In this document: piece by piece, positions 42,001-46,981 of the stretch
Layout: each line of letters begins with the position of its first letter
Position numbering within the stretch: the first letter of the stretch is position 1
DNA from: Candidatus Woesearchaeota archaeon
Lineage (GTDB): Archaea; Nanobdellota; Nanobdellia; Woesearchaeales; GW2011-AR9
Assembly (NCBI GenBank): GCA_018303445.1
Contig: JAGVYE010000031.1
Span: forward strand, 1 to 46,981
Length of the DNA stretch: 46,981 nucleotides
Reading direction: 5' to 3'
Made by a program: the position numbers

Positions 42001-45000
42001 GATGCTTGTGCTGATCGTATAAAAGAAGAACTAAAAAAAGCAGAAAAATCGATTTATTTCCTAACTTTTTCTTTTACTCATGATGGAATCGCCAATATTC
42101 TCCTTTTGAAAAAACGCGATGGCCTTCAAGTGCGCGGGGTTATGGAGTCCAGGCAGATTACAATGGATGCAGAATTTAAACGTCTGCAAAATAACGGCAT
42201 TGATATCTTGAAAGATGGAAATAAGAACACTATGCACCATAAAGTCTTTATTATTGATGGGCAAACAGTCATAACAGGATCGATGAATCCAACCAGGAAT
42301 GGTGATGAACACAATGATGAAAACGTTCTTATTATTTATGACCAAAATATCGCGGAAAAATTTGTGAAAGAATTTGAGAAAGTATTTGGTGAAGCAAAAA
42401 TACAATAAACCTAAGATTTTCTCTTAAAGCGATGAAGAAGTATGAAGCCGGCGAAAAAACAAACTTCATTTCTGATCTTCTCGATCTTGTGGACTTATAA
42501 CATCTTTGGTTAGAAAATGGAGATGATAAAAAGAGAATCGTATCATTTCACAATAACCTTTAAATAGCTCAATTATTTTGTAGAATACAAAAGAGGTGTT
42601 TCATGCTCGGAATCTTCCTGATCATCGTTTTAATTGTGAGCAGCCTCTATATCCTTCTCAAAGGCGCGAATTATTTAATTGACGGCGCGGTTGATGTCTC
42701 TCGCTGGTTTCGCATTTCCCCTATTTTTGTTGGCTTGACGGTTGTTGCTTTTGGAACCTCCTTACCAGAATTTATGATAAGTTTGTTCTCGGTTCTTAAT
42801 GGCGATGCTGACCTTTCTATTGGCAATATCATTGGCAGTAATATTTTCAACATTGCTTTTATTATCGGTCTCAGCGCCATTATCAGGCCACTTACGGTGC
42901 GATCAAGTACTCTCATTAATGAATTTCCCTTTATGACCAGCTCCGCGTTCCTCTTACTTATCTTAGCTTCTGATCATTTTCTCTTCGGTGAGAATGTTTT
43001 CATTTTAGGAAGGATTGATGGGATTATTTTCCTTCTTCTCTTTTCCTGTTTTATTGCGTACATTTTAGCTAATATGAACAAAGAAAAGAAAATCGTCACT
43101 ACAGAATTCTTAGCCTTTAAACGGGACCATTCCTTATTCAAAAGTATTTTTATAATTATCAGCGGTCTTGCCGGCCTTATTGCTGGAGGAAAAATCTTCA
43201 CCTTTGGTGCGACAGAACTTGCTATTCGTGCTGGGATAAGTGAGGCCTTCATCGGTTTAACCATTGCCGCGGTGGGAACATCTCTCCCTGAACTTGCGAC
43301 TTCTACCGTTGCCGCCTGGAAAAAGCAAATGGACATTGCCGTGGGCAATATGGTCGGTAGTAATATTTTTAACATCCTTTTTGTTCTCGGTATCGTAAGT
43401 ATCATCAAACCCATTTCTGTAAATCCTCTTTTTCTTCAAATTGATGCCATGGTGATGATTCTCGTTACCATGCTTTTTGTACTTTTTGCGACTCGCAAGA
43501 AAATCGTCTCCCGCGGGCAGGGAATATTTTTTGTTGCCCTGTATGTGCTCTATACGGCCTTTTTAATTTGGCAATTGTGATTTAACAGTTACCCTTCTTC
43601 ATCAACACCTTTAAATACGCCACGGTCTCTTTTTGAGAAAAAAAGCTCCTGACCATGAAATTCAATGAATTTACGTTAGATCCTTTTCAAGAAGAAGCCA
43701 TTCAAGCCATTGAAAATAATGAATCTGTTGTCGTTTCCGCTCCCACGGGATCAGGAAAGACTTTAATCGCTGATTATATCATTCATAAACACCGAAATGA
43801 TAATCAAAGAATAATTTACACTGCCCCCATTAAAGCCCTTTCTAATCAAAAATATAAAGACTTTTCCAAAGATTATGGTGAGCAGATGGTAGGTTTGATG
43901 ACCGGCGATTTTGTCATAAATCCTCATGCCAAGGTTTTGATCATGACCACGGAAATTTATCGTAACATGGCCATCAGCGGTGACGAGGAGGTAAAAAACA
44001 TTTCCTACGTTATTTTCGATGAAATTCATTACATTAATGATATTGAACGTGGCTATGTCTGGGAAGAATCGGTAATTTACAGTTCTCTGAACGTTCGCTT
44101 TCTTTGTCTTTCTGCGACTATACCCAATGCGGAAGAATTCAGCCGCTGGATTAGCGCTATCAAAAAGCATACAGTGCGAACTGTTACCTCGACAGAACGG
44201 CATGTTCCCCTTGAGCATTGGTTCTATGACTATGAGCTTGGAATTACCAGCGCTGAGAAAATCAAGAAAGCCATGGAAATTCCTCATTATGATCAGGTTA
44301 TGGGGAAAAGAAAAAAAAGAAAGTGGGAAAGAGTGCCGGAGCCAAATCACATCGAACTCATTAAATCTCTGGGCCTGGAAAAACTACCTTGTTTTTTTTT
44401 CACTTTTTCCCGCCGCGATTGTCAGAATAAAGCCAAAGAATTAGCCCGCCAGAACTTCTTCCCCAAGGAACGGCCAGCGTTAGAATTTTTTCTGCACAAA
44501 GTGCATCAAGCCCCCAGTGATGTTCATAAACTCACCTCTGTTAACATTCTCAAAGAGACCTTAACGCAAGGTATTGCCTTTCACCATGCCGGATTGCTTC
44601 CGGTCGTGAAAGAAACTATTGAAGAACTCTTCGCCCAAGGCCTGATTCGTGTTCTGTACACCACAGAAACATTTGCGGTAGGAATTAATATGCCCGCAAA
44701 AACTGTCTGCTTTAATGCTCTGCGAAAGTATGATGGCCTTAATTTTCGCCCTCTGAACACCAAAGAATATTTTCAAATTGCGGGAAGAGCAGGAAGAAGG
44801 GGCATCGATGACAAAGGCTACGTTGTAAGTATGATCTTCCGTCCAACATTTAACTATCATGAAGTAAAACGCATCACTTCCAAAGACATTGAACCAATTC
44901 GCTCTCAATTCCGTCTTTCCGTCAATACGGTCTTGAATCTCATTGAGCAACATTCACCAGAAGAAATCGAAAAAATTCTCCGCTTAAGTTTTTATTCTTA

Positions 45001-46981
45001 CCAGAAGTTTGGTGAGAAGTTCGATAAGATTCCCAGCACGGTCTTACTATCCCGCTACTCCAGCATTGTGCGGAAATTAAAAAAATTTGGCTACCTTGAA
45101 CAGCAGCACCTGACGCCGAAAGGTATTTTTTCTTCCCGTATCTTTGCTGACGAGTTGACGATAGGAGAAATTTTTGCCACCAGTATGGTTGATCAACTTA
45201 ATGAATATCCAATTCTCTTAACTCTCGCTGTTCTTGTCTATGAACCTCGTGAGACCTACAAGTTTAAACAAAAATTTCCTGATGACGCTCTACATAAACT
45301 TAAAGGAATTCTCCACAGAAACGAATATCTTTCCCGGGAAAAGAAATTTTTAGAATTAGAAACGATGACCAGCATTATTCATCCCATGTATCACGGAAAA
45401 AACTTTTTCCAAGTGCTTGAGAACACCAACCTTCTGGAAGGGGATTTAATTCGTCTCTATGCGCAAATTCTTGACCGGCTTGGCCAAATTCGCAAAGCCA
45501 GCACCAATTATAAATTGTTAGCTAAAATTGCCAATTGTGAAGGCATTATTCGGAAAGTGCTGGAAGGGATTTATGAAATATAACGATGTTATGTTTGGTG
45601 GGGGTCTAGGGAGCGAGGGTAAATGAAAATGCGAGCCGCAGCGAGCCATAGATAGTGAGCGACCGTCCCCCATCCGAGCACCGCAACCGCAGTGAGGAGC
45701 GCAGAGTTTTTGAATTGCCGTGCTTCCCGGTGCTGTCGGAGTTTCCGTTTCGTAGTTAAGGGTGGGGCGACTAAAATTTTATAAAGTAGTTCGGTTAAGT
45801 CTGTAACAATGGCTCAAAAGAGGATGATTTTGAAAGGTAGTGTCATTGGTGATTTGTTTACGAAGTATGGGTTAGACGCTAATGTTTTTGTTGATTTAGT
45901 GCTGTATCCCAAAGCAAAAGAATATTTTGAGAAAAGAGGCTATGCTTTTCCTGGAAAATTCCTCTGTACGCTTTCTCAATGTATTGGTGAATGTAAAGGC
46001 GTCTTGATTAACCGTTATGGCTACTCGGAAGAAAAAGCGAATACTCAGATTGATAAGATCATGGAAGAGTTCCTGATTGAAAAATTACCTAACGTGGTTA
46101 TTGAAAATGATGTTTCTGTCGTAGAGGAAATTGGGCAGAAATACGGATTAAATGCTGAAGATGTTCCCCTCATTTACGGTTTTTGGAAGTTGAAAGTGAA
46201 TATTATTGTTGTTCGAGATAATGCGTTTGAGAATACCTGTAAAGAATTAAATATTAATATAGTCAAATGGCCAAGCTTTAGTTAAAATTCTCAGAAGCAA
46301 GAAACTGGTATGCTTTTTTTTTATCTCCATGAGCTTGCTTTAATGCTTTTTCAAAACGTTGCTTTCGGTATTCTTGTGTATTTTGGTAAGAATCTTTTAA
46401 CGCTGGTTCTTCTGCCATCATGGCATGGATCATCCTAAAGGAAACGGCATCCCACATATTCCTATTGAAGTCCTCTAGCTGATGGAGAACATCTTGTCCA
46501 ATTTTTTGAACATTCATGGTTTCTTGCATTTTAAGTATTAATACTTAGGGAAGTTTATAAAGATTTCTTGATTTTTGATTCAAAACCAACACTTATCAGA
46601 ATTCTCTTTTAGCCATCTTTCTTTTTCTTGGTAGTTAGGCATGGCTTGCCCCACCAGTTTCCAGAATTGGTCAGAGTGGTTTCTTTCTTGCAGATGGGCT
46701 AATTCGTGTATGCAGGCATAATCAATCACTTCATCAGGAGCAAACAAAAGACGAGTCGAGATATTGACATTATCAGAATGTGAGCAACTTCCCCAGTTTG
46801 AAGTGTTGTACTTAAGAAATACTTTTTTGAACGTAAAGTTAAAATGTTTCTCATTAAGTGTTTTAACTTTATTAGCAATATAAGTTTTTTTCTTTTGCGC
46901 TACCAAGCGGCTTAAGAGTACAGAGATATGTTTTTGTTGAGTATTCTTTGGAAGAACACTTGAAACGTTAACATAAAATAT

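Follow-up and report, generated by a model that had tools for sequence, protein, structure and literature searches.

An arch-less Mtr4/Ski2-family helicase in Woesearchaeales, its likely acquisition from bacteria and its co-occurrence with an RNase D-type nuclease

The window analyzed here is the whole of contig JAGVYE010000031.1 (46,981 bp) from the genome of a Candidatus Woesearchaeota archaeon (GCA_018303445.1). The following features were identified:

42603..43580, forward strand: Na/Ca exchanger gene (Pfam), the upstream syntenic neighbor of the helicase (16/63 loci)
43610..43617, forward strand: TATA-like box TTTAAATA, 38 bases 5′ of the ATG, read from the sequence
43655..45583, forward strand: arch-less Mtr4/Ski2/HelY-family (COG4581-type) DExH helicase, 642 aa (ORF, Pfam, PDB matches, structure model)
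43739..43762, forward strand: Walker A, APTGSGKT (aa 29-36); A29, T31, G34 and K35 invariant across 111 rows
44018..44029, forward strand: motif II, DEIH (aa 122-125); D122, E123 and H125 invariant across 111 rows
44723..44752, forward strand: RecA2 beta-hairpin (aa 357-366), a predicted strand-separating wedge; model strands 357-359 and 364-366, alignable across groups
44990..45085, forward strand: two-helix stub (aa 446-477) replacing the arch (structure model, 6c90 alignment, anchor spacing)
45104..45556, forward strand: DSHCT/ratchet domain (aa 484-634; Pfam, model), with the ratchet helix at aa 595-615 and R600/Q604/D607

The initial annotation described a 642 aa DSHCT helicase at 43655-45583, and we confirm it: Pfam DEAD, Helicase_C and DSHCT (PF08148, 50.8 bits against a cut-off of 22.7) all match. 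The DExH core has motifs I-VI and the beta-hairpin, and the motifs are invariant in 111 homologues. The arch domain (PF13234) gave no match in the Pfam search of the protein, and the arch site between its anchors spans 29 residues versus 234-375 in the eukaryote-clade rows. As claimed earlier, the top solved match is 6c90, a 734 aa arch-deleted MTR4 construct (E 1.7e-110, a single stretch over residues 5-630), and Brr2/Slh1 types are weaker (E 2e-48 or worse). Hel308-type structures match at about 1e-39, far below the Mtr4-type match. By these PDB E-values, Mtr4/Ski2 proteins are its nearer kin, ahead of both Hel308 and Brr2. The predicted structure (pLDDT 90.2, pTM 0.85) has 6c90 as its top Foldseek match (TM 0.86), and Hel308 scores 0.75.

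The helicase shares with eukaryotic Mtr4/MTREX and Ski2 the ring of RecA1, RecA2, winged helix and ratchet domains, the DSHCT region, the beta-hairpin and all helicase motifs. It differs from them in lacking the arch (stalk and KOW barrel), the N-terminal extension and the Ile1014 docking turn, and it is not their sister in the tree. Hel308 and ASH-Ski2 (COG1204, COG1202) have a Ski2-like core in common with it, but the helicase has neither a helix-loop-helix domain nor a zinc finger. TATA-like boxes, judged by eye in AT-rich DNA, precede the gene in 16 of 18 relatives, which suggests that it has its own candidate archaeal promoter.

At least 120 relatives (632-670 aa, the query included) were listed at 67-82% identity, as the initial annotation had it. 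The description of the gene as fixed in Woesearchaeales did not hold, since the helicase was found in just 130/251 genomes of the order (102/196 of high quality). It is fixed at the family level only. The family does carry DSHCT as described, though not at the 71% given; it was found in 27/27 other family genomes. Outside the order, one of at least 117 genomes of the class has it. The order and family counts, together with the tree, bear out the proposal of an archaeal Mtr4/Ski2-family lineage. PMC10946056 agrees with the earlier statement that this survey lacks the group in archaea: no COG4581 member is given for 294 archaeal genomes, and its tree contained no bacteria. A group surveyed there, in the one survey identified, as absent from archaea is nevertheless present in half of a large DPANN order. 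Our literature search found no paper joining Woesearchaeota and Mtr4, or Ski2-like, archaea and DSHCT, and PMC10946056 alone for COG4581 and archaea. A plasmid search with the helicase returned four weak records.

A bacterial source had been proposed for the helicase, and the phylogeny agrees. The archaeal clade (support 92/95) nests among bacterial-type proteins in a group of 46 rows, and a 100/99 branch splits this group off from eukaryotes and HelY. Monophyly of archaeal and eukaryotic Mtr4/Ski2 was rejected (p-AU 0.027, LG+G4). The trees are unrooted, and of 30 representatives looked up only 6 had organism names; the named neighbors of the archaeal clade are Wallbacteria and Muiribacteriota. 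DSHCT helicases of these two phyla (750-800 aa) are the nearest relatives, with 45-49% core identity, and keep an insert of 132-147 residues. All six multi-member families are kept together in the helicase tree, a count that is based on topology alone and not on support values. The gene thus appears to have been retained vertically within the order, and acquisition from bacteria near the order's base is likely. One row named Woesearchaeota (P0129) fell outside the archaeal clade in a FastTree run.

The arch-less design is common in Omnitrophota (about 650 aa), which have a stub as in the archaeal helicase yet belong to a different clade, and is also seen in one Actinomycetota cluster. Because arch-less bacterial proteins fall in other clades, repeated loss of the arch is likely. 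Actinobacterial HelY (represented by the Nonomuraea gene at L244 and, through a passage citing it, by M. smegmatis HelY) is likewise a prokaryotic DSHCT helicase, 35% identical to ours. Unlike ours, it is placed with the eukaryotes by the 100/99 branch, and four of five long HelY rows carry an arch-like insert of 225-280 residues (264 and 272 in two outer rows). A giant-virus donor was considered and rejected: the 79 viral loci found are 32-38% identical. Fourteen of them were placed in the tree, where 13 cluster with eukaryotes and one with HelY-like rows.

The EXO and HRDC nuclease that the initial annotation paired with the helicase is indeed present at C50:4221-5318 (PF01612, PF00570). Its DEDDy site (D29, E31, D87, Y152, D156) is invariant in 62/62 sequences. 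It scores 159.6 bits against TIGR01388, below the cut-off of 299. Rrp6 is the best PDB match (9e-25; E. coli RNase D, 6e-17), and the nearest Atlas clusters are 100% bacterial. Calling it Rrp6-type is not justified, as Rrp6's N-terminal extension and its C-terminal one are both missing. A median of 28 residues lies ahead of the first catalytic Asp and 5-21 beyond the last conserved motif; there is therefore no PMC2NT and no exosome-binding tail, regions whose roles in Rrp6 are described in passages of PMC5322736. The nuclease does occur in the family, in 18/27 genomes (55% in the initial annotation), and in only 22/251 across the order. Of 35 literature matches for RNase D, archaea and Rrp6, the 20 listed do not mention Woesearchaeota. 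RNase II/R was not found in this genome, which is 95% complete.

RNase D is nested within the helicase-bearing genomes: 21/22 RNase D genomes in the order sample and 40/40 in a second sample also have the helicase, which makes 49 of 50 when each genome is counted once. The association is significant between families (Fisher p 0.0095) and within them (exact p about 0.008), and so the co-occurrence is better supported than the earlier note knew. One genome (G004) has RNase D without the helicase, and 109/130 helicase genomes gave no RNase D with this query. In the high-quality set of 101 genomes, 7/8 RNase D genomes carry the helicase (p 0.13). DEAD-box helicases likewise skew toward helicase-positive genomes, with a weaker trend (p 0.019), so general gene loss may account for part of the RNase D link. 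Linkage of the two genes within 15 kb, a threshold set post hoc, was seen in 5/21 genomes of the first sample and did not replicate in 28 new genomes or 80 metagenome loci. The RNase D tree keeps 2/6 families together, again counted on topology alone, and departs from the helicase tree. Between-family distance correlations among helicase, RNase D and Rrp4/41 (20 genomes) were 0.08-0.15 and uninformative.

Neighboring genes and other helicases bear on two further readings. The commonest neighbor of the helicase is ThrRS (25/63 loci), and in 20/80 loci of the family RNase D adjoins a 16S rRNA methyltransferase-like gene. Both would suit a helicase of ribosome-associated quality control or rRNA maturation, one that clears ribosomal particles of mRNA or precursor tails independently of any single nuclease. 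In Streptomyces, HelY becomes enriched on ribosomes when tetracycline is present, and Ski2 binds the small ribosomal subunit, according to passages of PMC7157823 and PMC5322736, respectively. The same passages of PMC7157823, however, report a marginal effect of helY deletion; our helicase lacks the arch or insertion that aids Ski2 and Mtr4 on ribosomal particles, and its neighbors vary from family to family in a pattern that looks like ordinary synteny. We regard a ribosomal role as unlikely.

Genes that are presumably mutL-like (17/63 loci) and mutS-like (8/63), labels we assigned by motif, also occur near the helicase. They could indicate a remover of RNA:DNA hybrids, acting on R-loops or nascent transcripts and replacing ASH-Ski2 or supplementing Hel308, which is split over two genes across the order, this genome included. 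HelY is described in the literature as unwinding RNA:DNA hybrids. ASH-Ski2, an archaeal RNA helicase linked to the nuclease aRNase J in passages of PMC10946056, had no counterpart visible in this genome; the hmmsearch used also missed the genome's own DEAD-box protein, and absence claims from it are therefore weak. Against this reading, Hel308 pieces occur in 100/101 genomes irrespective of the helicase, and the nesting of RNase D is left unexplained. We consider it highly improbable. The helicase was also considered as the genome's sole RNA helicase, which is rejected by a DEAD-box gene at C41:9309-10403 and DEAD-box genes in 91/101 genomes of the order.

The boldest proposal of the initial annotation was that the helicase feeds RNA to a full exosome. 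Genes for Rrp4, Rrp41 and Rrp42 are present as described (C37:205-2379). The exosome is not full, in that the sole matches of Csl4 models in the genome were Rrp4 and a further S1 protein, and no Csl4 was above the cut-off in a profile search of 101 genomes of the order. Nor are the genes beside one another: helicase, exosome and nuclease lie on three separate contigs. At the Rrp41 position of the catalytic Asp182, all 55 order genomes compared have Glu, with a longer loop, and the second Asp, RR and AG[TS]R are retained. The roles of the metal ligands Asp182/Asp188 and the phosphate-site arginines follow passages of PMC3539426. We rejected the idea that this substitution arose with the helicase, as Glu is found in 14/15 genomes outside the order. 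According to PMC7414124, loss of Csl4 runs through DPANN cluster 2. Neither trait is therefore tied to the helicase.

An exosome cofactor that docks on the Rrp4 cap, the exosome being without Csl4, and threads RNA inward while RNase D serves as a hydrolytic partner in the manner of Rrp6 would fit several observations. The modeled ring fits exosome-bound MTR4 (6d6q, TM 0.86), the exosome itself is unusual, and RNase D, whose top PDB match is Rrp6, occurs nested among helicase genomes. Rrp41 occurs in 125/130 helicase genomes, and the sole family in which it is missing (f41, 3/3 genomes) also lacks the helicase; in 7/90 genomes its gene is no more than 25 kb from that of the helicase (p 0.07). 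Rrp41 is, however, also in 113/121 helicase-free genomes (p 0.40). No exosome gene was found in 91 helicase loci (62 with flanks of up to 8 kb, 29 with 1.5 kb). The arch-less design is also common in Omnitrophota, and the RNase D ends, its bacterial relatives and the wider range of the Rrp41 Glu and Csl4 loss also count against a cofactor.

The docking parts themselves are missing. Four residues precede the core of the helicase versus 67-348 in eukaryote rows, and the N-terminal peptide with which Mtr4 binds Rrp6/Rrp47 (Ski3/Ski8 in Ski2) has no counterpart in it. We placed Ile1014 by taking human MTR4 to be 1042 aa long. An [IVL]-Gly turn with this residue is present in 10/10 eukaryote rows and is out of register or absent in 16/16 archaeal rows, 15 of which are 2-4 residues shorter in the region. 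In passages of PMC10411580, MTR4 Ile1014 contacts Met40 of EXOSC2 (Rrp4). The known exosome-docking parts of Mtr4 are thus absent, and a stable exosome seat is not predicted. Without Rrp41 co-variation, an exosome gene in the loci or docking parts, the proposed feeding finds no support, and we think a cofactor role quite doubtful. The same slim chance is given to the larger proposal of a 3′ decay set of eukaryotic style that Woesearchaeales assembled anew out of bacterial parts, with the motor on an Rrp4-only cap via a new surface, a Glu-Rrp41, and RNase D as Rrp6. If docking were true, the system would be a model for the recruitment of helicases to the exosome; if the rebuilt set were true, it would be an independent replay of the eukaryotic exosome gaining a helicase and a hydrolytic nuclease.

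We consider it reasonably probable that the protein is a free, bacterial-derived 3′-5′ RNA helicase that aids 3′ nucleases without being stably seated on the exosome, and that RNase D, in genomes that have it, is the nuclease most likely to benefit. RNase D works distributively and comes to a halt at structured regions. By analogy with HelY and Mtr4, the helicase would prefer RNA, load on a 3′ tail and move 3′ to 5′ at the expense of ATP; the duplex would be split at the beta-hairpin and the strand ratcheted through the ring. Structured 3′ ends opened in this way would pass to the 3′ nucleases of the cell. Where present, RNase D may be helped past structure, a step suggested by co-occurrence, and the exosome would putatively be helped by delivery of unwound RNA rather than by docking.

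The ratchet residues R600/Q604/D607 are those of Nonomuraea HelY (R/Q/D), whereas eukaryote rows have R/R/E. Passages of PMC4267639 report that yeast Mtr4 without its arch keeps a near-normal unwinding rate and that unwinding is abolished when R1030A is added to the arch deletion. Since our helicase is arch-less and has Gln at the R1030 position, it may, by comparison with the yeast double change, unwind weakly or act as a translocase. The protein represents a naturally occurring minimal Mtr4 motor, a form that laboratories otherwise engineered, and can therefore be used to test the purpose of the arch and the ratchet residues. Bacterial members of this helicase family have almost no known partner, and the nesting of RNase D offers one that is concrete and assayable. 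In genus g108, a single ORF separates the helicase gene from that of RNase D, and the pair adjoins genes for a DEAD-box helicase and for an RtcA-like cyclase.

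The helicase in this window, a member of the Mtr4/Ski2/HelY group, is encoded by one ORF:

43655-45583, + strand: helicase ORF, 642 residues, with Pfam DEAD, Helicase_C and DSHCT domains

Residues 5-630 align in one stretch to the 734-aa MTR4 construct 6c90 (E 1.7e-110), the top solved match. Against full-length MTR4 the alignment breaks into two segments, and the break puts the absent arch at approximately residues 452-473. In an AlphaFold2 model built with 111 homologues as input (pLDDT 90.2), this site is predicted to form two helices (446-455 and 462-477) joined by a short loop. 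A Foldseek search with the model put MTR4/Ski2 chains on top (TM 0.86) and Hel308 below (0.75). The 6c90 match and the two-helix stub bear out the initial annotation of a DSHCT helicase of the Mtr4/Ski2 family without an arch. A TATA-like box lies upstream of the gene and, judged by eye and without a shuffle control, also in 16/18 relatives.

The helicase is present in 130/251 Woesearchaeales genomes (102/196 of the high-quality ones), and so is not fixed in the order as had been proposed; all 27 other genomes of the family carry it. Elsewhere in the class, DSHCT was found in one of at least 117 genomes, and two of 14 control genomes have it, both bacteria. Thirteen of the 120 close relatives listed have organism names, 12 being Woesearchaeota or Nanoarchaeota and one Nomurabacteria. 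The archaeal helicases make up a genuine lineage within the Mtr4/Ski2/HelY group, minimal in design and lacking the arch. No report of it appeared in the parts of the literature returned by our search, and the supplementary annotation tables of PMC7414124 or PMC10946056 could list the genes. A 68%-identical copy (P0065) sits in a record titled Nomurabacteria (L033) and labelled as a Patescibacteria genome; either the contig is archaeal and was misbinned, or the gene was transferred. The order and family tallies include genomes flagged as unpublished (G204, G110, G200, G202, G129, G178 and G238), of which G200 also gives one Rrp41 row and G204 one alignment row; the conclusions are independent of them.

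An unrooted IQ-TREE phylogeny was made from 407 core columns, leaving out the arch region, and 62 rows, which were picked from the 147 in an initial tree together with four extra sequences. In it, the archaeal rows and one unnamed row form a clade (support 92/95, a branch that is not starred) within a 46-row group, which a 100/99 branch separates from the eukaryote-sized proteins and HelY. The named near relatives of the clade are Wallbacteria and Muiribacteriota, with just 6/30 looked-up representatives having organism names. In a FastTree run, the row P0129 fell outside the archaeal clade. A constrained tree joining archaeal and eukaryotic rows in one group was rejected (p-AU 0.027). The transfer from bacteria suggested in the initial annotation is likely, given the nesting in this unrooted tree with few named rows and the narrow archaeal range. 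Loss of the arch is no archaeal speciality: of the 147 rows, 43 fall outside the archaeal clade and have a stub no longer than 40 residues. For one of these 43 rows, the 14 organism-named rows among its 120 relatives listed are all Omnitrophota, and another arch-less cluster belongs to Actinomycetota and includes one protein labelled HelY. DSHCT-type helicases are also numerous on giant virus contigs (L245-L323), where the proteins are ~830 aa long and their arch region spans ~118 residues; we estimate ~1400 such stretches in the database.

In eukaryotes, two tethers hold Mtr4: an N-terminal peptide that links it to Rrp6-PMC2NT/Rrp47, and Mpp6 (PMC5322736). An MTR4 pocket including Ile1014 contacts Met40 of EXOSC2 (PMC10411580). 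Before the core, the archaeal helicase has four residues, compared to 67-348 in the eukaryote rows. The turn holding Ile1014, which we located by taking MTR4 to be 1042 aa long, is present in 10/10 eukaryote rows and in register in 0/16 archaeal rows. On the ratchet helix, the archaeal residues R600/Q604/D607 match those of Nonomuraea HelY, whereas eukaryote rows have R/R/E. In yeast Mtr4, R1030 reads poly(A), and the arch-less protein retains unwinding, but arch-less R1030A loses it (PMC4267639). We infer that Q604 is the archaeal equivalent of R1030. The proposed partner, an RNase D/Rrp6-type EXO-HRDC nuclease on contig C50, does have the HRDC domain and an intact DEDDy site (62/62), but the Rrp6 extensions are missing; its top PDB match is Rrp6, although the Atlas clusters closest to it are bacterial. 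That the helicase is a docked exosome cofactor appears improbable: a new docking surface is possible, but the Mtr4 N-terminal extension and Ile1014 turn are missing, and Rrp41 (238/251 order genomes) is similarly frequent with the helicase (125/130) and without it (113/121; p 0.40). Most likely, and with some confidence on our part, the protein would work as a free 3'-5' RNA helicase.

RNase D was searched for with a single protein query (E 1e-15). It was found in 22/251 order genomes in a first sample, 21 with the helicase, and in 40/251 in a second, overlapping sample, all 40 with it; combined, 49 of the 50 distinct RNase D genomes carry the helicase. Because kinship makes genomes non-independent, we used tests at and within family level. 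The family-level table (13:1 vs 70:49) gave p 0.0095, and an exact test within five mixed families p 0.008, one of these families (f105) probably reflecting a single block loss. Weighing against a link, the 101-genome high-quality set gave p 0.13 and, by the single-query search, RNase D is missing from 109/130 helicase genomes; among controls, DEAD-box helicases skew similarly to helicase genomes (p 0.019) and RNase J does not. The two genes lie within 15 kb of each other in 5/21 first-sample genomes, being almost adjacent in genus g108, and linkage was seen in 0/28 new genomes and 0/80 metagenome loci (37 of these at least 8 kb long). Multi-member families stay together in 6/6 cases in the helicase tree and 2/6 in the RNase D tree. 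These patterns fit an RNase D that is retained or acquired chiefly in genomes with the helicase, rather than a fixed two-gene module.

The exosome genes of the study genome are grouped on one contig:

C37: rrp4-rrp41-rrp42
C37:884-1585: Rrp41 (L005), with Glu at the catalytic Asp182 position

The exosome, initially described as full, is represented by these three genes; Csl4 was not found in the study genome, nor above the cut-off in 101 order genomes; weak Csl4-model matches, where placeable, are Rrp4. Loss of Csl4 in DPANN cluster 2 has been published (PMC7414124). In family f41 (G040, G153, G220), Rrp41 was not found in any of the three genomes, one a single-contig genome, and the helicase is likewise absent. 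Sulfolobus Rrp41 Asp182 binds Mg (residue roles from PMC3539426). Glu takes this position in each of the 55 order Rrp41 sequences examined; they retain the second Asp as well as the phosphate arginines, with the loop before the second Asp usually 2-3 residues longer; an automated count mis-anchored four rows, which were taken from the printed sequences. Outside the order, 14/15 genomes of the same class have this Glu (12 with Asp one place later), thus it predates the helicase.

Hel308 is encoded in the study genome by two unlinked genes (L007, L008):

C39:15545-16216, + strand: Hel308 RecA1 piece, 223 aa
C31:9191-10720, + strand: Hel308 remainder, 509 aa

The family was matched in 100/101 order genomes, each match listed covering either the N- or the C-terminal part alone. 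The frames around four of the C halves exceed 1000 aa, possibly with inteins.

Of 63 helicase loci, 25 have ThrRS as a neighbor, 18 an adenylate kinase-like gene, 17 a mutL-like gene, 16 the Na/Ca exchanger and 10 oligopeptidase F, these being the common ones; the labels adk, mutL and mutS, assigned from motifs, are presumptive. This recurrence is family-level synteny. Genus g108 has an RNA-handling cluster (L129:1464-11768 and L130:3-12306) of an RtcA-like cyclase, a DEAD-box helicase, the arch-less helicase and RNase D. The G246 copy also holds the Hel308 N half, and the congener G105 (100% complete) gave no DEAD-box, helicase or RNase D match. In G060 (C22:7378-10566) and at loci L040, L044, L059 and L062, the arch-less helicase has a DEAD-box helicase gene immediately upstream of it or no more than 8 kb away. 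Further features lie beside the nuclease and the helicase:

C50:3367-4224: FmrO/Rmt-like 16S rRNA m7G1405 methyltransferase gene (L006), 144.5 bits, below the 250 cut-off
45581-45810: intergenic stretch, 230 bases, 51% G+C vs 39% for the contig
45809-46285, + strand: small ORF, 158 aa
46278-46529, - strand: small ORF, 83 aa

The methyltransferase gene and the start of RNase D share 4 bases, a pairing seen in 20/80 RNase D loci. For the intergenic stretch, which is single copy in the genome and missing from the other loci, the folding energy is -66 kcal/mol, a value obtained without a shuffle control. The two convergent ORFs had no match in Pfam and NCBIfam searches; our impression is that they are possibly a PIN-like toxin-antitoxin pair.
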